The position numbers were made by a program, and so were the translations under genes. Positions 13,281 to 34,047 of a stretch of 35,465 nt of DNA are shown one piece after another; positions within the stretch are counted from its first letter, which is position 1; each line of letters begins with the position of its first letter. Origin of the DNA: a virus (taxonomy: Duplodnaviria; Heunggongvirae; Uroviricota; Caudoviricetes); IMG/VR virus record IMGVR_UViG_2534681764_000015. One strand, 5' to 3'. The notes beneath the pieces were generated by a model, which saw only the letters and a list, made by a program, of their open reading frames with translations, was not told the origin of the DNA and made no database searches.

Positions 13281-14114
13281 ATGAATATTACACAAGATAA
13301 CTTAGACATTTTCACGGGGTCGCATGTTGAAGTCTCCGTGTCTACTATGGTGGATAACCAGCCGGACTTTTTCGATCCTGCATTTAGTCCTATCGAGAAC
13401 ATCGCAGCATTCCCGATGATAACCGAATCCACAGAGATCCAGACGTTAGAAGAGTATGATCAGGACGCTACGGGTAAACTTGCTGGCTATCGTAAACTTG
13501 AATCAACTACGTTAGTAGTAAACCGTGTTCTGGATGACGAACATCAAGACATGTTGATGAAAGCGGTGAATGATAAAACTCCTTTACGCTTTCGTATGTT
13601 CTATGTTGTGAACTCTGGTTACAGTGCTGCTAACACAGGTTACTACGTCATTTTTGACGCTTATGTCTCGTCACATAAAACAAAATCCGGTGATAACAAA
13701 GTTACTACAATCGAGTTTAAATTAGAACCTGATGGCGGGATTCTAGATCGCGGTATTGCTACCGAAGGCCGGATCTTACGTCAAGGTGATTTTGGTTTGG
13801 GTGCTGGTGTAAATCCATTCACGGGTCCGATTGATAGCGAAGCATTAGCCGGAAACCGTTTCGTAACTTATCAGGGATCGAGCGCATCTAATCCATTTAG
13901 TGCTGATACTTCACTAATTCACGTTCAACCTAATGAAGATGGTGGATGGCAATTAACTTGCACCGCTTCCGGCGCACCACGTTTACGAGTTCGCACAGTC
14001 CAGAAAGACGGTAATTCTGGATGGGTGAAAGTGTATTCCACGGAAGAAAAACCGACACCAGCCGAGATTGAAGCCGTTTCTATCCATGACCGGATCGACT
14101 TCGGGGAATACTGA
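13281..14114 (+). CDS. hypothetical virion structural protein (277 aa)
   Basis: ORF with AAGGGGTAA RBS between head completion genes and tail fiber; function not recognised. Confidence 0.45.
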   Translation: MNITQDNLDIFTGSHVEVSVSTMVDNQPDFFDPAFSPIENIAAFPMITESTEIQTLEEYDQDATGKLAGYRKLESTTLVVNRVLDDEHQDMLMKAVNDKTPLRFRMFYVVNSGYSAANTGYYVIFDAYVSSHKTKSGDNKVTTIEFKLEPDGGILDRGIATEGRILRQGDFGLGAGVNPFTGPIDSEALAGNRFVTYQGSSASNPFSADTSLIHVQPNEDGGWQLTCTASGAPRLRVRTVQKDGNSGWVKVYSTEEKPTPAEIEAVSIHDRIDFGEY

Positions 14115-14187: not shown

Positions 14188-17100
14188 ATGCAATCAATCC
14201 AATTTAAACGAACTAATGTTTCTGGCAAAAAGCCAACGCCGGAACAATTACAGGTCGGTGAGGTAGCAATCAACCTTAAAGACCATGTTATTTTTACCAA
14301 AGACCGAGATCATGAAGTAGTTCAAATCTCTGTTTCTCCTGAAACTCACGCGGCACTAGAATCTAAAGTTGATGCTAACAAACAAGAATTGGATAGCACA
14401 ATTGCAGTAAATGACCGCAATATTCACGCTAAAGTAGATGAAATTAAACAAACTACTGATGCAACCATCGCAGCAAATCACGCAGAAATTAACAATAAAG
14501 TTGATGTAATTAAACGCGAAACCGACGCGACAATCGAGGCCAATAAAAATAAAGCTGCTTCCGATCTTGCTGGTGTTAAAGCTGAATTGTCGGATACCAT
14601 CAACGCTAATAAAAATGCGGCTGCTGTAGCAACTCAGGAACTGGACACCCGCATCAATAAAAAAGTTGATGATATTAAATCCCGTACCGATGCAACCATC
14701 GTAAGCAATCACAAAGCAATCAATGACAAAGTTGATTTGATTAAGGCAGAAACTGACCGCACTATCGCAGCAAATCACGCCTATGCGGAAAATCAGTTAA
14801 CTGACACCTACAATAACCTTACTGGTGTGATTGCAGCCAATAAGCAAGAGGCAGCGGATAACGTCGCAGCATTAACCCGTGATGTTGAAGCCAAAAATAC
14901 AGCAATTCATAGCAAAGTTGACAATAACAAGTCTTACACTGATTCTGAATTGGCACGCTTAGAAAGCCGTATTGATGCAGCCGATGGATCAAGTGATGGT
15001 AAGTACATCAAAAAGCACGTAAACACTTGCACTGATGGCTATTTGCTGTCTAAGACCGCAAACCCTTTTGATGATCCGAGTGCTCTTAATCTTGATTACT
15101 TTGGTGCATTTCGCATGAATGACCTGGCGGGTCATATTGCAATGATCTTGCATGTTCCGCACCCATCCGGCGTTAATCATGCTCGTGGTTTTGAGTTCAC
15201 TTATGGGTCTAATCCGGTTCCTACGGTAAGAACATACGGCTATGATGAATTGGGACATTTGGCATATTCTCACCGCATGTATCATGAAGGTGATAAACCT
15301 ACTCCGGCTGAAATTGGCGCATATTCGAAAGCAGAAATTGACCGACTGTTCCAGAAGACGCTTAATTTTGGTATCGAGGGTGGTTGGTTTAAACTAGGCA
15401 CTTTGACAATGCCACAACAACACGGTCGCACGGCTAAGATCCGTTTGGTTGGTGGTAACGGTTATAACGTCGGGATGAATGGACAAGCCAATATTATCGA
15501 ATTGGTGATCCGATGCGGCAACAATAGCCCGAAAGGTGTTGTATTCAATGCGTATTATACTATTTGGCATCATGAACAACATTTTTGCGCTATTCCAACC
15601 GATGGCGACAATTACGATCTTTACGCTTACTACGGTGCACATACAGGATTTGTTTTAGCAGAATATCAAGTTTCTTCCGGTGGTGTTTCTTTAAACCTGT
15701 TGGATACTCCTGAATATCTGGGTGGTGAAAAACCTGTTGCAGACGAAATTTTTGATGCTCTTAACATTTCATCGTTCAATAACTTTAGCAACCGTGGAAC
15801 GTTAAATTTTGCTGGAAACCATCAAGGCCAATACGACATTGAGCATTTGAACGAACAGCAAACAAATGCCAAGAAAATGTTGCGTCGCTTCCGTAGTTCT
15901 GCTCCTGCCACTATCTGGCATGAGACAGTTGATGATAACGCATATCGTCTTGCTACTGGATACGAAGATACAAATCAGGAATTATTGCTGACAGTAACAT
16001 CCGGGTTACATGTCAAGAAATTAACATTGGATGGTGGTGTTGGTGGAAATTCTGGTATTGATATTCGTCGAGGACCAAACGAAGCAAGCCATTTTAATTT
16101 CATGGATTATCGCACTGGACAAGATGTTCGTAATGGTTGGTTTGGTTTTGGTGATGGAACAACCAAAGATTTTATTTGGTGGAACGACAACGGTCAAAAC
16201 TCTATAAACCTGATTGCAGATGGTGAATTACATATTTCTGGCGGTAAAGGCCAGAAAATTGTAATGAATAGCGAAGTTGCATTATCTGAAAATGCTCGTT
16301 TGGCTGTTAAAGGTGGCAATTATGGTTTGATTTTACGCAATGATGGTTCTAGCTTCCATATTCTTACTACCGATTTAAAAGATTCTTTTGGTAGTTGGAA
16401 TAATCGCAGACCATTCAGCTATGATTTTGCGGACGGTGGATTGTATTTAGGTGGTACTGCAACCGCTCGTTGTTTGCATCTCGGAATTGATGGTAGTACC
16501 CGTCTTGAAGACAACCTTTTCTTTAAAGCTGGTTCTCGTCAATCTATGGACTATATGGAACTCGTCCATTGGGGTGCAAGCAATACAGGTCGAAATAACG
16601 TTTTAAGTCTTCGTGACTCAAAAGGATTTTTCGCAGAATTTGAACGATTGGGTGATAATACCATTAAAAACACCTTCTTCGGGAAACTTAAAGTTAATCG
16701 TGGTTCTGACGCAATCGTCATGAATGCCGAAACGGGTGATTCGTCTATATATTTGCTGGGTACTTGTGCTGATAATAACAACTGGTATATCGGTAAAGGT
16801 GGTGCTGATAATGGATTAGCGTTCTATAGCTATGCTACTAATGCTGCTATCAATATTACAAACGCGGGTGATATCGCGCTAAGTCCAAAAGGTGTCGAAA
16901 TGACTCATGTCAATAACGTTCGATTCTATGTTCATGGTGAACGTTGGACTGCTAGCCAATCTGGAGGTTGGGGCGATCAATGGGGATTAGAAGCGCCGAT
17001 ATTTGTCGATCATGGTTATGTAGGACCAGATAGCTATTATCCAATTATTAAAGGAAGAAGTTTAATCACCAATCAAGGGTATACAACTGCCGTCGATTTT

Positions 17101-17598
17101 GGTATGCGTCGTGTTCCTCAAAATTGGGGGCAAGCTATTATTCGTGTTGGATCTGCGGAGGCATCGCCAGCGGCTGGTCATCCTCAAGCGGTGTTTGAAT
17201 TTCATCATGATGGTACTTTCTATTCTCCTGGTAATGGTAACTTTAACGATGTTTATATTCGTTCCGATGGTCGTCTGAAAATTAATGTTGAAGATTACGA
17301 AGAAAATGCGGTGGATAAGGTAAATAAACTCAAAGTTAAAACCTACGATAAAGTTAAATCTCTTAATGACCGAGAAGTTATAGGTCATGAGATTGGTATT
17401 ATCGCACAGGATTTACAAGAGGTATTACCGGAAGCTGTTAAAACCGCAAAAATTGGTGGTCTTGATAACCCAGAAGAAATTTTAACAATTTCAAACTCCG
17501 CAGTGAACGCGCTTTTAATTAAAGCGGTCCAAGAAATGAGCGAAGAAAATAAACTTCTTCGTGAACGTCTTGCTGCAATTGAAGCTAAATTAGGGTAA
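14188..17598 (+). CDS. long tail fiber with C-terminal intramolecular chaperone (peptidase S74-like) domain (1136 aa)
   Basis: N-terminal MQSIQFKRTNVSGKKPTPEQLQVGEVAINLKD fiber-anchor-like motif; 24-aa coiled-coil repeats; C-terminal SDGRLK...HEIGIIAQDLQEVLPE...LLRERLAAIEAKLG resembles the self-cleaving chaperone of T5 pb1 and endosialidases. Confidence 0.8.
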   Translation: MQSIQFKRTNVSGKKPTPEQLQVGEVAINLKDHVIFTKDRDHEVVQISVSPETHAALESKVDANKQELDSTIAVNDRNIHAKVDEIKQTTDATIAANHAEINNKVDVIKRETDATIEANKNKAASDLAGVKAELSDTINANKNAAAVATQELDTRINKKVDDIKSRTDATIVSNHKAINDKVDLIKAETDRTIAANHAYAENQLTDTYNNLTGVIAANKQEAADNVAALTRDVEAKNTAIHSKVDNNKSYTDSELARLESRIDAADGSSDGKYIKKHVNTCTDGYLLSKTANPFDDPSALNLDYFGAFRMNDLAGHIAMILHVPHPSGVNHARGFEFTYGSNPVPTVRTYGYDELGHLAYSHRMYHEGDKPTPAEIGAYSKAEIDRLFQKTLNFGIEGGWFKLGTLTMPQQHGRTAKIRLVGGNGYNVGMNGQANIIELVIRCGNNSPKGVVFNAYYTIWHHEQHFCAIPTDGDNYDLYAYYGAHTGFVLAEYQVSSGGVSLNLLDTPEYLGGEKPVADEIFDALNISSFNNFSNRGTLNFAGNHQGQYDIEHLNEQQTNAKKMLRRFRSSAPATIWHETVDDNAYRLATGYEDTNQELLLTVTSGLHVKKLTLDGGVGGNSGIDIRRGPNEASHFNFMDYRTGQDVRNGWFGFGDGTTKDFIWWNDNGQNSINLIADGELHISGGKGQKIVMNSEVALSENARLAVKGGNYGLILRNDGSSFHILTTDLKDSFGSWNNRRPFSYDFADGGLYLGGTATARCLHLGIDGSTRLEDNLFFKAGSRQSMDYMELVHWGASNTGRNNVLSLRDSKGFFAEFERLGDNTIKNTFFGKLKVNRGSDAIVMNAETGDSSIYLLGTCADNNNWYIGKGGADNGLAFYSYATNAAINITNAGDIALSPKGVEMTHVNNVRFYVHGERWTASQSGGWGDQWGLEAPIFVDHGYVGPDSYYPIIKGRSLITNQGYTTAVDFGMRRVPQNWGQAIIRVGSAEASPAAGHPQAVFEFHHDGTFYSPGNGNFNDVYIRSDGRLKINVEDYEENAVDKVNKLKVKTYDKVKSLNDREVIGHEIGIIAQDLQEVLPEAVKTAKIGGLDNPEEILTISNSAVNALLIKAVQEMSEENKLLRERLAAIEAKLG
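14356..14800 (+). repeat. in-frame tandem repeats (about 72 nt / 24 aa) inside tail fiber gene
   Basis: at least five KVDxIKxxTDATIxANHxxIN units. Confidence 0.6.
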
Positions 17599-17636
17599 TT
17601 GGAAAGCGGGGAGAAATCTCCGCTAAGGATTCTTAT

Positions 17637-17933
17637 ATGGGATATTGGGTAAGTAGTGAAATTAATACTAAAATCGATGCTTTAAAATGGCATGTATTTG
17701 ATATTCCTAACGGCTATGGTACTGCTCGTGCTGGTGTCGCTGTAATGCGTCATAATGCTGGTGGTGGGTGGTCTGATGCACATATTAACGTAGATGGTTT
17801 GACCGTTGCTCGTCGTCGTGGTGGGACCAATTGGGGATCTACTATAAATTCGTTTGTTCCTGCTGGCTGCACCGTCTCCTTTGGTTTAGGGGGTGAAGGT
17901 GGTGTTGAATATTTTAAATTCATGGAGTTTTAA
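17637..17933 (+). CDS. small Gly-rich protein, paralog A of tandem triplet (98 aa)
   Basis: shares FDIPNGY/W, Gly-rich loop and TVSFxLG...YFKF with the next two ORFs. Confidence 0.6.
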   Translation: MGYWVSSEINTKIDALKWHVFDIPNGYGTARAGVAVMRHNAGGGWSDAHINVDGLTVARRRGGTNWGSTINSFVPAGCTVSFGLGGEGGVEYFKFMEF

Positions 17934-17935
17934 TT

Positions 17936-18241
17936 ATGGCTGGATGGATAAATCAAAGAATGTCAAACGCTATTAGTATTTGGGCTAATGGTGGATATTT
18001 TGATATCCCCAACGGCTGGGTTACTGATTCATGCGGAATTGTTTTTGCTCATATGGAAGCCATTAACGGTGCTGGTGATCTTGATTCTGAATTGGCTGTA
18101 AATGGATTGATTGAATCAGGTCATCATGCTGGTGATGCTGGGAGTTGGGGCGCTAGTTCTTTAGTTGGCGCTGGTGCTACCGTTAGCTTTACATTGGGTA
18201 AAGGTAGTTTGCATTATTTTAAATTCAGGAGAATGCACTAA
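17936..18241 (+). CDS. small Gly-rich protein, paralog B of tandem triplet (101 aa)
   Basis: YFDIPNGW, DSEL, ATVSFTLG, YFKF motifs; start 2 nt after stop of paralog A. Confidence 0.6.
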   Translation: MAGWINQRMSNAISIWANGGYFDIPNGWVTDSCGIVFAHMEAINGAGDLDSELAVNGLIESGHHAGDAGSWGASSLVGAGATVSFTLGKGSLHYFKFRRMH

Positions 18242-18543
18242 TGGCATTTTGGGTAGATGGCGCTTTGGGGAATAGGGCGGGTAAAGCAAATCAAGGATGG
18301 TTTGATATTCCTAACGGTTGGACAGCCGACGCTTTCGGGACTATTTCATTCTGTGCTCATTCTTCCGGTGGTGGCGGTGGTGACTCTGAATTGCTTATTC
18401 ATGGTTTGTGTGTTTCTGGAAGCCATAAGGGTCATGATTGGGGACAGATTCATTCTTGTATTGCACCGCAAGGGGCGGTAATTACCGTTAGCACAAATAG
18501 GGGGATCGCTCATCTTCGTTATAGACGTTTGAGCAACCGCTAA
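18241..18543 (+). CDS. small Gly-rich protein, paralog C of tandem triplet (100 aa)
   Basis: WFDIPNGW, GGGGGDSEL motifs; ATG overlaps stop of paralog B (TAATG). Confidence 0.6.
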   Translation: MAFWVDGALGNRAGKANQGWFDIPNGWTADAFGTISFCAHSSGGGGGDSELLIHGLCVSGSHKGHDWGQIHSCIAPQGAVITVSTNRGIAHLRYRRLSNR

Positions 18544-18597
18544 ATAAATAGAATTACGGGTATGTGCCCTATTGTTTAAAATAGAAGGAAAAGAATA

Positions 18598-19068
18598 ATG
18601 ACTACTAAATTTGATATTTTTTCTGGTGGCCTCGTTGGTCTGTTTCTGCATGAAGAAGTAACTAACACCGATCTTGACAGTGAAAGCTATCTGGAAATTC
18701 CAGAATGTGCGGCTTTCCCGGAAACTGGTGTAGAACGTTCTACTATCGATGTTCCTAACTTCGGTGGTCCGTATAACCGTAAGCTGGTTGGTCGTATGTC
18801 TGTACCGGATATCGAACTTTCGATCAACTACATGCCGGGTAACGAAGTACACGAAAAACTGATTAAAGCAACCGAAGACGGTAAGCGCGTACAGCTTAAA
18901 ATTGCTTACTACATCGACGCTACGAAAAAATCTGGTGTACATATCGCTTATAACGGCTTCCTGTCTAAAACTACCATGACTGGTGGTGAGGATGCTGTAG
19001 TAGGCCGTACCTTCACCTTTGTAGTAGATGGTGCTCCGGTTAAACAAGCTGTTTTCCAGAAACTCTAA
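18598..19068 (+). CDS. major tail (tube) protein candidate (156 aa)
   Basis: immediately upstream of the chaperone pair and tape measure; biased codon usage; followed by strong terminator. Confidence 0.6.
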   Translation: MTTKFDIFSGGLVGLFLHEEVTNTDLDSESYLEIPECAAFPETGVERSTIDVPNFGGPYNRKLVGRMSVPDIELSINYMPGNEVHEKLIKATEDGKRVQLKIAYYIDATKKSGVHIAYNGFLSKTTMTGGEDAVVGRTFTFVVDGAPVKQAVFQKL

Positions 19069-29043: not shown

Positions 29044-29391
29044 ATGGCTAAAAATATTTTCACTGAATTTCCTACTTATCCGGTCGATCAGCTTTCCGGT
29101 ATTTTTATTAATGGCATTAGCCCAGAATCTATGACACATGATTTTGAGGCGAAGAGAGTTAAACATAAACAATATAAAGAATGTATCCGCGATCATGAAA
29201 AAGGGACCGTGTTTTGTGTCGCTACATTGGCTAAACGTCCTAAGTATCGTTTTCGTGTCGGACAAGAAGTTGATGTGGTTAATCCTTATAGCTTTAACTG
29301 TCTGGGCGATGCACGCGCGGTGTGTGTAGGCACAACTAATTACTACATTAAAGGACTCAGATTTACCGGGTATATAATGGAATACATCTAA
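29044..29391 (+). CDS. hypothetical protein (115 aa)
   Basis: GGGGGT RBS and downstream terminator; preferred over antisense ORF 29029..29472. Confidence 0.5.
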   Translation: MAKNIFTEFPTYPVDQLSGIFINGISPESMTHDFEAKRVKHKQYKECIRDHEKGTVFCVATLAKRPKYRFRVGQEVDVVNPYSFNCLGDARAVCVGTTNYYIKGLRFTGYIMEYI

Positions 29392-29405
29392 CTCTAATAA
29401 ATACA

Positions 29406-29431
29406 AGCGACCAATTTCGGTCGCTTTTTTA
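29406..29431 (+). terminator. rho-independent terminator
   Basis: hairpin AGCGACC-AATTTC-GGTCGCT followed by TTTTTT. Confidence 0.6.
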
Positions 29432-29443
29432 TTTGGAGGAATC

Positions 29444-30481
29444 ATGGAGATTTTATTTGCTGAATATATCAACTACACCGGATTTACAAGAAAAACGCCT
29501 CTTGACTATGAACCTATTGCCATTAAACGTTGTGATGAGTTGGGGTACATCTATAACGGTTTTGTTGTGCCGTGGAAAGGGCAACATACACCCGTTTCTA
29601 TAACCTGCAAGAAACATAGCACAACGCGAACAATTGCTTTCAAAACTCTTAAAAAACAAGGTGCGTGTCTTGAATGCTATAAAGAATCATTAAAACTTCC
29701 TAAGAAAAAGAATAGAGATAAGGAAGCTGTATTAGATAAAGCAAGCAATGTGCTGGAACGCAAAGATATGGTTTTAGTTGGATTGTTAGAAGATTATAAA
29801 GGATTAGACACAAAAGTTTCTTATAAGTGCAATTGCTGTGATACTGCATACGAAACCATAATCACTAGAATCATAAACGATGATGCTGGGTGTCGTCATT
29901 GTGGGTCAATTAAGAGAGGAATCAATAAGAGAAAACACACAGACGACGAATGGATGGATCTAATTGAGCATGAATGCAGGAACAAACGACTTGAATTAAT
30001 AGAACAACCTAAATCTCCTATATTGTCAACATCAAAAATACACATCAAATGTGAAAAAGGTCATCTTTCTGATTCTTTGGTAGTTTATGGTTTAGTGTAT
30101 GAAAACTTAGGCTGTCCATGTTGTTCTAAAAATGGTTATAACAGAAGTAAGTCGGGAGTTTTCTACGTTCAACAGGTCGGAGATTATATAAAATATGGAA
30201 TAACAAACCATCTAAACCCACAAAAGCGAGTAACTCAACAAGCTAGGGAATCAGGGTTAAAACACAAGTTATTGTGGTATATAACGTTCGGTGACGGAAA
30301 AGTTGCCAATGACCTAGAGTATTCCGTAAAACATAACATAGGAAATCACGCTGCACCAAAAGAACTAATCCCAGACGGATATACAGAAACATGTGACATA
30401 ACCAAAGAAGCGCAGATTAGAAAAATGGCAATGGATTTTTGTAAAAACTCCAACAACTATAAAATTACATATAGGGGGTAA
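29444..30481 (+). CDS. Cys-rich protein with C-terminal GIY-YIG / T5orf172-like motif, paralog 1 (345 aa)
   Basis: three CxxC-type pairs (CKKH...CLEC, CNCC...CRHCG, CEKGH...CPCC) then GVFYVQQVGDYIKYGIT...RV; homologous to 31247..32245. Confidence 0.6.
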   Translation: MEILFAEYINYTGFTRKTPLDYEPIAIKRCDELGYIYNGFVVPWKGQHTPVSITCKKHSTTRTIAFKTLKKQGACLECYKESLKLPKKKNRDKEAVLDKASNVLERKDMVLVGLLEDYKGLDTKVSYKCNCCDTAYETIITRIINDDAGCRHCGSIKRGINKRKHTDDEWMDLIEHECRNKRLELIEQPKSPILSTSKIHIKCEKGHLSDSLVVYGLVYENLGCPCCSKNGYNRSKSGVFYVQQVGDYIKYGITNHLNPQKRVTQQARESGLKHKLLWYITFGDGKVANDLEYSVKHNIGNHAAPKELIPDGYTETCDITKEAQIRKMAMDFCKNSNNYKITYRG

Positions 30482-30981: not shown

Positions 30982-31200
30982 ATGAAAGAACCTGAGATCG
31001 TCATTGAAGAAACAAAAGAAGAATCTCCAGCAGTTGAACCAGTGGTCGAAGAAGTTAAGTCAGATGTTGAAGAAGCACCGGAAGTTAAAGTAGAATCTCC
31101 GGTAGCCAACATTTTCTCGGACGAAGCAGAGCATCGTTCTCCTGCACATGACACTGATTCATTTTGCGATCTTACTGGTTTCCAAAACTACAATAATTAA
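30982..31200 (+). CDS. acidic hypothetical protein (72 aa), doubtful
   Basis: ORF track 30799..31200 spans the terminator hairpin; first ATG after it is 30982; no clear RBS. Confidence 0.2.
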   Translation: MKEPEIVIEETKEESPAVEPVVEEVKSDVEEAPEVKVESPVANIFSDEAEHRSPAHDTDSFCDLTGFQNYNN

Positions 31201-31246
31201 TTCTTATAAATAGTAGTGAATATTATTTTATTGAGGATTCACTACT

Positions 31247-32245
31247 ATGAATACTACTTTAGCAAAGGATATCGAATTTACCGCAAAAAGCAAACGTGCG
31301 ACCCCTCCGGTCGAATATGAAACCAGAATCATTAAAGTTTGTCAAGTGCATGGATGGTTATACAGTGGTTTTGTGCTTCCTGTAAAGAAACCATTCCAGA
31401 ACACCAAAGTTTGCATAGAAGTTAACGGAAAGGTTAAAACGCCATGTATTAGTCATGTTCTAACTGGTCAGTTTACTGGCAAAGATAGAGTATCACCGCC
31501 TAAGAAGGAGTTTAGATTTACCGAAGAAGAACACTTAGAAAACGCTCGCAAGTTCTACAAGCCGATAGGGTGGGATGTGTTAGGTCTGGCTGAACCTTAT
31601 CAGGGTGTTGACACTAAACTAATTCTTCGTTGTAAGTGCCACGGAAAGATTCACAAGAAAGGTGATTTACACAATAACCGCAGACAAGGCGGGTTAACAT
31701 GCCCTTTGGTTAGGGGGGTACTTAAATCAATTCAGAATGGTAGAAAACAGGTTATCAGAAACAAGTTTGCACAGCGCCCTATGCACTTTTATCTAATTCG
31801 TGTTGGCGAGAAGTTTTTCAAATATGGAATTACCACTCGCAAAGATCCGATGCAACGGGTAAGAGAACACCAGAAGCACACCAGCGAGAAAATCACCTTT
31901 GAATGCTCACATTTGTTTAACATTGGATGGAAAGCTGGTGATTTAGAAATGGGGATTAAAAAGAATATTCAGGGCAAGAAAATCCCACGTAAGGTAATGA
32001 ATAGCGGATTCACAGAAACGCTACCGATTAGCAAGCTGAAAGATGTTAAATCATTCATCAATGAATACATCCACACCAACCCATCTAAGCCAATGTATTT
32101 TGATGATACCAACGCAATCAATCTGAACAACTACATTAGTGATGAAGACATAGAACGAGATTTATCGCAGTGGATGAATGCACCGTTAGCTGATTTAACA
32201 CCGGAAGACTTAGAACTCGATTTAAGCCCTTTAGAGGCTCTTTAA
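31247..32245 (+). CDS. GIY-YIG / T5orf172-like motif protein, paralog 2, Cys-depleted (332 aa)
   Basis: aligns with 29444..30481 at EYETRIIKVC...GFVLP, YQGVDTK, FYLIRVGEKFFKYGIT...QRV, GFTET. Confidence 0.6.
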   Translation: MNTTLAKDIEFTAKSKRATPPVEYETRIIKVCQVHGWLYSGFVLPVKKPFQNTKVCIEVNGKVKTPCISHVLTGQFTGKDRVSPPKKEFRFTEEEHLENARKFYKPIGWDVLGLAEPYQGVDTKLILRCKCHGKIHKKGDLHNNRRQGGLTCPLVRGVLKSIQNGRKQVIRNKFAQRPMHFYLIRVGEKFFKYGITTRKDPMQRVREHQKHTSEKITFECSHLFNIGWKAGDLEMGIKKNIQGKKIPRKVMNSGFTETLPISKLKDVKSFINEYIHTNPSKPMYFDDTNAINLNNYISDEDIERDLSQWMNAPLADLTPEDLELDLSPLEAL

Positions 32246-32257
32246 TACAATTAAATT

Positions 32258-32290
32258 AAAAAGGGGTACGGATGTACCCCTTAACTGTTT
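32258..32290. terminator. bidirectional terminator between convergent genes
   Basis: hairpin AGGGGTAC-GGAT-GTACCCCT flanked by A-run upstream and T-rich downstream. Confidence 0.6.
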
Positions 32291-32318
32291 TAGCTCGTTA
32301 TACGTCGATTTAGGCCGC

Positions 32319-33998
32319 TTAAATTCCAAATTCCTGTAATGGACCTGGTATTTCCTCTTCTGGTTTCCAGTTCTTATCTGTCAGCATGTCTAAACATGGA
32401 TGCAAAACAAGCCCGTTACTCTCCAGAATCTGCCTATCATTGATAGTTTTCAAATCAATGAATATCCGGCCTTTCCTCGTTCCTCTTGAATTTTCTATTA
32501 CAACTCTCTGGGTCTTTCCATCGATGTATTCCAGCACAAACAAGTTTTTATTTCTGTCAATCCTGCTACACCCGATCCGCTTTAGAGCTTGCTTAATCTT
32601 AAACCGGACCTTTAGTCGTTCCTCGTTATAAACATCTTCTAAATCAAATTCTGCGAGCTTCTCCCAGCCTTGAGAGTCCACAGAATACATTTCCTCTTCT
32701 GCCATCTTGATCTGATTGTAGAGTGTTTCACGCTCGCTATTGAGGGTAGTAATCTGATCGGCTAGCTCCTTCGTTGCTCCTGTCATAGCAGAAAGGGCAA
32801 TCAGGTTATCAATCTTGCGTGATATTTCATCAACCTGTACTTTCAACGCCGGAACCGGATTAGCCTTGTCCTCAGCAATCCAGATTTTATCAGCCAGCAA
32901 TTGCAATACAGCTTTCTCTAATTGATCACCTCGAAAACTCCAGTTTGGATGCTCGCAATCAAGTCTACGTGAACGGGTCGCATCACATGTATAACGATAC
33001 TGGTCAGAACGTTTGTTCGTTCCCTTCACTTTAACCATAGCGCAACCGCAATGATCACATTTCAATAGGCCAATACCACTAAGCAGGGGGATCGGTTTAA
33101 CTTCTTCCTTGTCTCCAAAGTTCCATGCTCTAGCACCAATATTTTTCTTAAGGTGATAGAACGTAGCATCATCAATAACACGAGGGTAATAATCCTTTAA
33201 CTCATAGTTAACACCATCTACAGAGACTTCCTTGATACCAATCAAAGCGCGGGTATGGAACAACCTTTCAACCATTGCCCGTGACCATTTTGAATGCTTC
33301 TTATTACTAACCGCTGGTGGCGGTGTATATGTCTCGTTAAGGTGATCCAGTATTTCGGCGGTTGAACGTCCATTCTTCCGTAATTCCACAATCTCCTGAA
33401 CAACAGGGAAGTATGTAGGATGAGGCAACACATAACCGGAAGTGGTATCCGTCCACCACATATTCTTTCCAACTTCCTCGATTGCCACTGCCGGATTCTG
33501 GGGATTTTCTTGATGGGCTTTAATCTTAATCAGTGCGCTTGAGTTAGTACGATTGCGCTTAGTCTGGCTTTCCTCATTACCACGGATGAATAAAAGGATG
33601 GAGAACATCAGGTCCATCGGGTTAGCGGTAACAGTATCCAGCGAGTAGATCTTGTTATCCATGCCAGTAACAATGGTTATCCCCCTACGGATGATTGAAA
33701 GGAATAACTCCTGCGCACTGACAATATCGGCACGGGATAAGCGGTCCAAGTTTTCAATGAATAGCCAGCTACCAACAGGAACGGATCTACCAATTGCATC
33801 AAGGAAACGAGATAGCGCCCCTGTTTTGGAGTTAGCACCCTTAAACGCAGATACACCCAGATCCTGATAATCATTTACCAGTTCAAGGTCATACTTTGCC
33901 GCAACCTCTCTCGCCATCCTGATTTGTCGTTCATAACTCGAACCATCATTCTGACGCATAGACGAGAAGCGAATATACGAATACAGTTTAGTTTTCAT
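32319..33998 (-). CDS. large serine recombinase (integrase-type) (about 559 aa)
   Basis: N-terminal LYSYIRFSSMRQ catalytic-Ser motif of the resolvase/invertase domain, Cys cluster CDHCGC...C...C (zinc ribbon), C-terminal coiled coil; ORF track extends to TTG at 34013. Confidence 0.85.
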   Translation of the reverse strand: MKTKLYSYIRFSSMRQNDGSSYERQIRMAREVAAKYDLELVNDYQDLGVSAFKGANSKTGALSRFLDAIGRSVPVGSWLFIENLDRLSRADIVSAQELFLSIIRRGITIVTGMDNKIYSLDTVTANPMDLMFSILLFIRGNEESQTKRNRTNSSALIKIKAHQENPQNPAVAIEEVGKNMWWTDTTSGYVLPHPTYFPVVQEIVELRKNGRSTAEILDHLNETYTPPPAVSNKKHSKWSRAMVERLFHTRALIGIKEVSVDGVNYELKDYYPRVIDDATFYHLKKNIGARAWNFGDKEEVKPIPLLSGIGLLKCDHCGCAMVKVKGTNKRSDQYRYTCDATRSRRLDCEHPNWSFRGDQLEKAVLQLLADKIWIAEDKANPVPALKVQVDEISRKIDNLIALSAMTGATKELADQITTLNSERETLYNQIKMAEEEMYSVDSQGWEKLAEFDLEDVYNEERLKVRFKIKQALKRIGCSRIDRNKNLFVLEYIDGKTQRVVIENSRGTRKGRIFIDLKTINDRQILESNGLVLHPCLDMLTDKNWKPEEEIPGPLQEFGI

Positions 33999-34010
33999 AC
34001 CATTTCCAAA

Positions 34011-34047
34011 CAAAAACGCCCCTACCGCGTATTATAACGATAGGGGC
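34011..34047 (-). terminator. rho-independent terminator candidate for gene 34062..34481
   Basis: minus-strand hairpin GCCCCTA...TAGGGGC followed by GTTTTTG. Confidence 0.45.

Follow-up and report, generated by a model that had tools for sequence, protein, structure and literature searches.

Three small tandem paralogs behind a gp37-like phage tail fiber: a candidate three-chain fiber-tip module in the genomic slot of the gp38 adhesin

Three small paralogous genes lie directly 3' of the side tail fiber gene of an Escherichia coli prophage, in a slot that related loci fill with the adhesin gene gp38. The prophage is of siphovirus type, is integrated in hicB, and was analyzed as a single ~35-kb stretch of DNA (35,465 nucleotides), here called the window. 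We propose, with a probability of about one half, that the three gene products form a 1:1:1 heterotrimeric fiber-tip cap or adhesin that replaces gp38 without being homologous to it. That the triplet has a structural tip or adhesin role of some kind is somewhat more probable than this specific arrangement, and we consider it very probable that the triplet is functionally tied to the fiber in front of it, which ends in a chaperone domain of the Peptidase_S74 family (S74 fiber).

The prophage encodes a large serine recombinase, a lambda-J-type central fiber (Ig_GpJ_C), and lambda-like tail tube proteins. Outside the fiber region, no close relative of the window was found among 50,697 phage records. 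The side tail fiber precursor (14188..17598, + strand; 1136 aa) is a mosaic whose distal half is T-even gp37-like. It contains the Pfam domains Gp34_trimer, gp37_trimer, and Peptidase_S74 (aa 1026 to 1085, E = 4.3e-14) and matches the PHROG family “long tail fiber distal subunit” (E = 1e-126), and its distal part shares 82 to 97% DNA identity with gp37 of Krischvirus and Tequatrovirus phages. An exchangeable tip domain, tip A (16646..17228, + strand), is the only part of the fiber in which collinearity with prophage PK8568 is lost; PK8568 has a different tip (tip B') yet an identical triplet. A protein sequence nearly identical to tip A is found in gp37 of Krischvirus MIZ4 and Tequatrovirus DalCa, and the fibers of phages G2248 and UPWr_E1 carry tip A plus an extra domain of ~100 aa.

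The fiber ends in an intramolecular chaperone domain of the self-cleaving kind (aa 1026 to 1136; 17263..17595, + strand) that aligns with its counterpart in S16 gp37 (PDB 6F45) and contains the Ser-Lys cleavage motif S-D-x-R-x-K. Cleavage is predicted before Ser1026, between NDVYIR and SDGRLK, at the position that aligns with the junction of NVS and SDRRIK in S16 gp37, and by analogy with the Peptidase_S74 family, the chaperone probably removes itself at this site. On its other side, the triplet is followed by a gene for a 156-aa tail tube protein (18598..19068, + strand; Pfam Phage_TTP_12, PHROG_158 “major tail protein”), which in the prophage delimits the module on the right. These Pfam and PHROG assignments agree with a preliminary description of the locus, which had placed the three genes between a fiber with its own chaperone domain and a tail tube gene.

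The same description had reported open reading frames of 98, 101, and 100 aa with a 2-nt gap and a TAATG overlap, and both the coordinates and the spacing hold. ORF1 (17637..17933), ORF2 (17936..18241), and ORF3 (18241..18543), encoding paralogs 1, 2, and 3, are all on the + strand, with 2 nt between ORF1 and ORF2 and TAATG as the overlapping stop and start codons of ORF2 and ORF3. Shine-Dalgarno-like sequences (GGAG/AAGGA) can be read directly 7 to 9 nt 5' of all three starts, those of ORF2 and ORF3 within the 3' end of the preceding gene. The paralogy that had been claimed was borne out by pairwise BLASTP comparisons (E = 1.8e-12, 6.2e-9, and 9.4e-15), in which the pairs scored 50 to 61 bits compared to a maximum of 29 bits in 100 shuffles. 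In an alignment of the three proteins, 19 columns are invariant, among them M1, W4, F-D-I-P-N-G, and several glycines, and the differences between the paralogs are concentrated in loop regions. The motif list given earlier proved too general: F-D-I-P-N-G is present in all three proteins and YFKF in paralogs 1 and 2, but paralog 1 reads FDIPNGY and lacks DSEL, and paralog 3 reads AVITVS and HLRY rather than ATVSF and YFKF. All three share one predicted architecture, Trp4 and an N-terminal helix followed by an eight-stranded jelly-roll. They end in YFKFMEF (paralog 1), YFKFRRMH (paralog 2), and LRYRRLSNR (paralog 3, which also has a GGGGG loop). The ratio dN/dS, calculated against E. coli, Krischvirus, and Salmonella orthologs, is lowest for ORF3 (0.08 to 0.20). 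Because it is 0.08 to 0.29 for all three, we take them, on this sequence evidence, to be real genes under purifying selection.

The preliminary description had not recognized the family, and profile searches likewise gave no confident assignment. ORF1 and ORF2 matched no Pfam family at E <= 1, C1q/TNF included, the sole Pfam match of ORF3 was at chance level, and PHROG returned only weak, chance-level matches for the three paralogs. The Pfam and PHROG gp38 families did not match the triplet. Neither the window nor the whole genome of phage KFS-EC contains extra copies or fused versions of the triplet domain.

Structure prediction of the monomers, which had been proposed as a check, gave a consistent picture for the two proteins modeled. 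AlphaFold2 models of ORF1 and ORF2, built from shallow family alignments, reached pLDDT values of 80.4 and 81.7, respectively. Both have an N-terminal helix (residues 3 to 15 in ORF1 and 7 to 17 in ORF2; pLDDT 50 to 60) that is not packed against the rest of the protein, followed by a compact jelly-roll of eight strands with a pLDDT of about 90. The nearest folds to the modeled jelly-roll are those of C1q/TNF heads and carbohydrate-binding modules, at 5 to 13% identity, and the best fold matches in BFVD are C1q-domain, collagen-repeat, and tail fiber proteins. The models thus point to a fold of the kind used in terminal knobs that are often trimeric and often bind glycans. The likeness to carbohydrate-binding modules and TNF-like lectins is one of fold alone at this level of identity, and sugar-binding residues are not assignable in the triplet.

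Monomeric carbohydrate-binding modules scored as well as C1q/TNF heads in these comparisons; the fold alone is no proof of a trimer.

The family is small and occurs in one constant arrangement. A word-indexed search of 5.8 billion proteins returned 10, 6, and 16 clusters for paralogs 1, 2, and 3, all from Escherichia, Shigella, or Salmonella, and a profile search of 1.84 billion representatives gave 23 matches at E <= 1e-3, 17 of which are proteins of 97 to 129 aa. The full triplet locus is present in 22 of 5,426 complete E. coli genomes, where it is annotated as three hypothetical proteins, in 9 IMG/VR prophage contigs, and, at 59 to 65% identity, in several Salmonella prophages and Logan loci. 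Only four phage isolates carry any family member, and all are Krischvirus (RB49-like, T4-like): G37-3, G2248, and UPWr_E1, in which the triplet lies between gp37 and the holin gene, and KFS-EC. A metagenomic T7-type fiber (Phage_T7_tail plus S74) is followed by the triplet and then by a holin gene, and one further metagenomic fiber locus carries the triplet. Without exception, the intact loci inspected consist of three genes in 1-2-3 order immediately 3' of an S74 fiber. The fiber is the sole constant neighbor of the triplet across contexts, which extend over myovirus, siphovirus, and podovirus settings.

Positions 1 and 3 also keep their identities over long distances. Even in remote loci, their best matches are ORF1 and ORF3 of the window (59 to 73 bits versus 20 to 49), an orthology that is clear even at 30 to 45% identity, while position 2 is more diverged. 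The triplication is therefore old, with all three copies retained. Constant copy number and positional orthology favor, at the level of sequence, an obligate heteromer over interchangeable alternatives such as the one in which each paralog forms its own homotrimeric cap, so that fibers carry one of three tips and host range is broadened. We consider homotrimeric caps unlikely, even though every protein has the complete anchor-plus-knob architecture, C1q/TNF-like heads are usually homotrimers, and the loop regions are where the paralogs diverge most. Interchangeable alternatives would be expected to come and go, and the copy number is invariant in the intact loci examined. Furthermore, the tight translational coupling suits equimolar subunits, and the gp38 anchor that the triplet appears to replace itself consists of three non-identical helices. 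We prefer the 1:1:1 heterotrimer because of the constant copy number, the orthology of paralogs 1 and 3, the coupling, and the three non-identical anchors.

The connection with gp38 comes from the exchange of cassettes behind the fiber. The DNA block that is common to the window and Krischvirus G37-3 runs from within the fiber gene to just past the ORF3 stop codon. Behind tip A, MIZ4 and DalCa have a T2/S16-type gp38 (260 to 266 aa), whereas the window has the triplet. Behind tip B, RB32 has gp38 and G37-3 the triplet, and the triplet also stands behind variants of tip B in PK8568 (tip B') and a Salmonella prophage. The boundary of the cassette falls within the last ~20 fiber codons, after the sequence QEMSEE. 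A single prophage backbone is found in three states: fiber plus triplet in the window, fiber plus gp38 in E. coli TO6, and fiber alone in DEC5A, a sister prophage with a tip-A-like fiber and no adhesin gene of any kind. In TO6, gp38 is accompanied by a 70-aa remnant of ORF3, to which the nine initial codons of a Krischvirus ORF are joined.

Two possible correlates of adhesin type within the fiber gene were considered. No covariation between the triplet allele and the type of fiber tip was evident, as a single allele occurs with A, B, and B' tips alike. Nor is the chaperone's C-terminal tail (…KLLRERLAAIEAKLG versus …KELKTPFFTKIARKISKYFKF) functionally matched to the adhesin type, since one locus (L024) has the triplet behind a gp38-style tail; chaperone tail and adhesin correlate because they are physically linked at the boundary of the cassette.

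That the triplet is swapped with gp38 as a cassette speaks for a role connected with the fiber. It is therefore very improbable that the triplet is unrelated cargo, for example lysis-associated or exclusion proteins that hitch-hike behind the fiber gene. In prophages, the tail operon continues on both sides of the triplet, at a long distance from the lysis genes, and the S74 fiber is the only neighbor that stays constant. Inspection of the sequences, whose GRAVY values are about 0, revealed neither signal peptides nor transmembrane segments in the triplet proteins.

Triplet and gp38 were mutually exclusive: intact triplets occur without gp38, and gp38 occurs where the triplet is missing, has collapsed, or survives only as a remnant. 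This is the pattern expected if both do one job. No significant gp38 homolog was found in the window or in the full PK8568 prophage by tblastn with three gp38 proteins. In G37-3 and G2248, gp38 is absent after gp37, and the sequenced stretches contain no match. RB49 keeps a g38-like adhesin at a distant locus (Trojet et al., PMC3157838), and this displaced RB49-type gp38 is also absent from G37-3 and G2248, where the flanks match KFS-EC at 96 to 97% identity and a 0.9-kb segment is missing. G37-3, G2248, and UPWr_E1 are not among the 44 records that contain the RB49-type gp38 N-domain (at least 95% identity); the gp38 status of UPWr_E1 was checked in part.

The genome of KFS-EC, assembled as a whole from records, provides the complementary case. 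This phage has tip A in its fiber and carries a displaced RB49-type gp38 of 258 aa with 57% identity to MIZ4 gp38, and its triplet has collapsed through a deletion that joins codon 89 of ORF1 to codon 48 of ORF3, followed by a 1-nt frameshift. The argument that KFS-EC shows the triplet to be dispensable, and hence not an adhesin, is ruled out by the presence of the displaced gp38. Rather, the sequence of this genome supports redundancy of the triplet with gp38.

The predicted N-terminal helices suggest how the triplet might attach. In the S16 gp37-gp38 structure, the N-terminal bundle of gp38 consists of three short helices with a conserved Trp at each apex, and the three Trp residues enter equivalent hydrophobic pockets at the base of gp37, one every 120 degrees (PMC6851490). 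The helix units of gp38 read PGW-IGSS, QRW-MSQA, and PCW-MSQF, and the triplet proteins have one such unit each at their N termini (MGYW-VSSEINT, MAGW-INQRMSN, and MAFW-VDGALGN). When gp38 sequences were scored with a profile of the triplet N terminus, the Trp of helix 1 scored best in 4 of 4 sequences and lay within the top 0.4 to 0.8% of Trp-centered background windows. Helices 2 and 3 (W22 and W37) were indistinguishable from background. The analogy of three chains with one anchor each to one chain with three anchors is attractive and unproven.

A likeness of the triplet N termini to all three gp38 helices was ruled out by the same scoring, in which helix 1 alone stands out. In distant family members, position 4 is also Y, L, M, or N.

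Taken together, the observations are consistent with the following sequence of events. The fiber would trimerize by means of its own C-terminal chaperone and then lose the chaperone before Ser1026, as is typical of the Peptidase_S74 family. Translational coupling, which is seen in the arrangement of the genes, may supply the three paralogs in equal amounts, and these would assemble 1:1:1 into a knob with the predicted C1q/TNF-like jelly-roll fold. By analogy with S16 gp38, the three N-terminal helices, with Trp or another hydrophobic residue at position 4, could serve as the attachment piece and fill three symmetry-equivalent pockets at the fiber base. Contact with a host ligand, plausibly a glycan, might then be made by the knob's distal loops, among them the Gly-rich loop and variable segments of paralog 1, although this last step is speculative. 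In the prophage, such a cap would tune adsorption and host range rather than be essential, because the fiber is an accessory side fiber that stands beside a lambda-J-type central fiber. The preliminary description had suggested a heterotrimeric fiber-tip or adhesin module, which is supported in part: the S74 linkage, the exchange with gp38, the C1q/TNF- and carbohydrate-binding-module-like fold, and the Trp plus helix all speak for it.

Several observations weigh against a cap. Sequence variability of the triplet is moderate and dN/dS does not exceed 0.29, compared to the extreme hypervariability of gp38. One triplet allele stands behind the very different tips A, B, and B', so that, if the triplet docks on the fiber, the interface would have to lie within the last, conserved strands (N-D-V-Y-I-R). 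The DEC5A sister prophage does without an adhesin gene. Finally, only helix 1 of gp38 resembles the triplet N termini, and Trp4 is not universal in the family.

An alternative role in fiber assembly is improbable in our estimation, slightly more so than homotrimeric caps. According to this explanation, the triplet proteins are nonstructural factors, comparable to T4 gp38 and gp57A or to Tfa of lambda and Mu, that help to fold or transiently protect the tip and are absent from mature virions. The place directly 3' of a fiber gene is the classical one for fiber chaperones, T4 gp38 occupies the slot of the adhesin gp38 (PMC6851490), and transient “chaperone caps” have been proposed in Alteromonas (PMC10579305). 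Tfa of lambda, Mu, and P2 and T4 gp38 are likewise small proteins encoded right 3' of the fiber gene, but the triplet resembles them in neither sequence nor fold, and the fiber studied here has an intramolecular chaperone.

The closest known counterpart of the fiber-tip cap that we favor is the adhesin gp38 of T2, T6, Ox2, and S16 (PDB 6F45). Both are encoded directly 3' of a gp37-type fiber with a cleaved C-terminal chaperone, occupy the same genomic slot in a mutually exclusive manner, and are exchanged as cassettes with a breakpoint in the last ~20 fiber codons. Both combine a Trp-tipped helix anchor, predicted in the case of the triplet, with Gly-rich segments, and their coding sizes are similar (about 260 aa for gp38 versus 299 aa for the triplet). 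They differ in that there is no sequence homology and that gp38 is one chain and the triplet three. The body of gp38 is a beta-helix and a polyglycine (PGII) sandwich with hypervariable loops, whereas that of the triplet proteins is a predicted jelly-roll with Gly loops of only 3 to 5 residues. Furthermore, gp38 has a long GRM/HVS array, which the triplet lacks, and the sequence variability of the triplet is much lower.

C1q is a heterotrimer of tandemly encoded A, B, and C chains. C1q/TNF heads have 10 strands in ~130 residues, compared to 8 strands in ~80 residues in the triplet proteins, and C1q carries a collagen-like stalk in the same chain, whereas the triplet proteins have neither such a stalk nor a Pfam C1q signal. 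Tentatively, and with less confidence than the heterotrimer itself, we suggest that the triplet may amount to a gp38 split into three chains of another fold, a C1q-like heterotrimer that would break the symmetry of the fiber and present one asymmetric receptor face, in a cassette portable among myo-, sipho-, and podoviruses.

The cyanophage Pam3 fiber gp24, which its authors liken to S16 gp38 (PMC9608196), also combines a docking helix, a TNF-like sandwich, and Gly-rich distal elements. In contrast to the triplet proteins, which are ~100 aa long and encoded after a long fiber, gp24 is a homotrimeric whole fiber that docks on the baseplate, with a glycine-rich domain of 125 residues and a separate chaperone.

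An adhesin or cap encoded 3' of the fiber gene is thus of a known kind. What appears to be new, as judged from the models, is its construction from three small paralogs of C1q/TNF-like fold that share no homology with gp38 and are able to move between tail morphotypes. No account of the triplet genes was found in the literature searched on Krischvirus, G37-3, G2248, UPWr_E1, KFS-EC, and C1q/TNF-like fiber tips. Both the prediction and the engineering of host range for T-even-like phages at present assume that the receptor is bound either by the gp37 tip (T4 type) or by a gp38 adhesin (T2/S16 type). If our reading is correct, genes that are now annotated as three hypothetical proteins would represent a third fiber-tip design and a heterotrimeric C1q-like head in a bacterial virus. 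This would explain host recognition in the gp38-less Krischvirus phages G37-3 and G2248, to which UPWr_E1 may belong, and likewise in a family of prophages of E. coli and Salmonella. S74 fibers could also be retargeted with it, as a compact ~0.9-kb module whose recombination boundary is defined. Sister genomes that carry the triplet, gp38, or nothing behind one fiber make the question directly testable.

A scan for promoters and terminators around the triplet gave no transcription unit of its own. The 38-nt spacer between the fiber gene and ORF1 contains a GC-rich hairpin without a U-tract (17605..17624, + strand; -13.3 kcal/mol, z = -2.6). The hairpin is also kept in KFS-EC, and in G2248 the equivalent site carries a putative terminator annotation.

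The triplet has been hit by several scars of recombination or decay (L003:5855-6290, L018:6479-6691 and L013:6001-6222, together with sequences P0012, P0029 and P0032). In the Krischvirus KFS-EC (L003:5855-6290), ORF1 is fused to ORF3 in a chimera that also carries a frameshift, and the join lies at a microhomology of Gly codons. The sister prophage of E. coli TO6 (L018:6479-6691) encodes a 70-aa fusion in which the start of a Krischvirus small ORF is followed by the C terminus of ORF3. In a further scar, the ORF3 C terminus is joined to the N terminus of a T-holin, and frameshifted copies of ORF1 and ORF2 also occur. Comparison of KFS-EC (L030:269-1045) with L031 and L032 defined the RB49-type "displaced" gp38 of Krischvirus genomes as a 0.9-kb presence/absence cassette flanked by a pair of conserved small genes, one on each side.

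Distant triplets were found on metagenomic contigs (L033:106-3109 and L035:3-4083). One is preceded by a chimeric fiber, composed of a T7 gp17-type N terminus, a T-even gp37-type distal half and S74, and has a holin downstream, and the other is followed by a second fiber gene encoding 902 aa.

In the window, a conserved GC hairpin with an 8-bp stem (positions 17605 to 17624; −13.3 kcal/mol, z = −2.6) that lacks a U-tract lies between the fiber stop codon and ORF1, and the equivalent site in the Krischvirus G2248 is annotated as a terminator. The hairpin may set the ratio of fiber to cap expression or stabilize the mRNA. The fiber and triplet are bracketed by two tail-tube-like genes (13281 to 14114 and 18598 to 19068). 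The first encodes a 277-aa protein in which a TTP-like N-terminal domain is combined with a C-terminal extension that has the motif KPTPAEIEA at its end; the motif is also present in the fiber (aa 370). This protein might form a ring that anchors the side fiber. On the minus strand, an ORF of 233 aa that starts with TTG (18346 to 19047) lies antisense to both ORF3 and the tail tube gene, overlapping each of them. It is most likely spurious because the two sense genes show conservation and purifying selection.

The prophage has hicB as its integration site and inserted there by means of a large serine recombinase (32319 to 34013, minus strand), as seen in the window and in L004. Among the scanned ORFs, no replication or lysogeny genes were recognized except a Rha-family regulator; several ORFs lack annotation. 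Relative to L004, indel polymorphisms among the sister prophages fall at window positions ∼23535, 29330 to 30473 and 30992 to 32317. Both PK8568 and DEC5A carry a NUMOD3 homing endonuclease gene that the window lacks. A 332-aa ORF and a 345-aa protein, the latter with a weak, subthreshold match to CapR homology, are found only in the window among the sister prophages.
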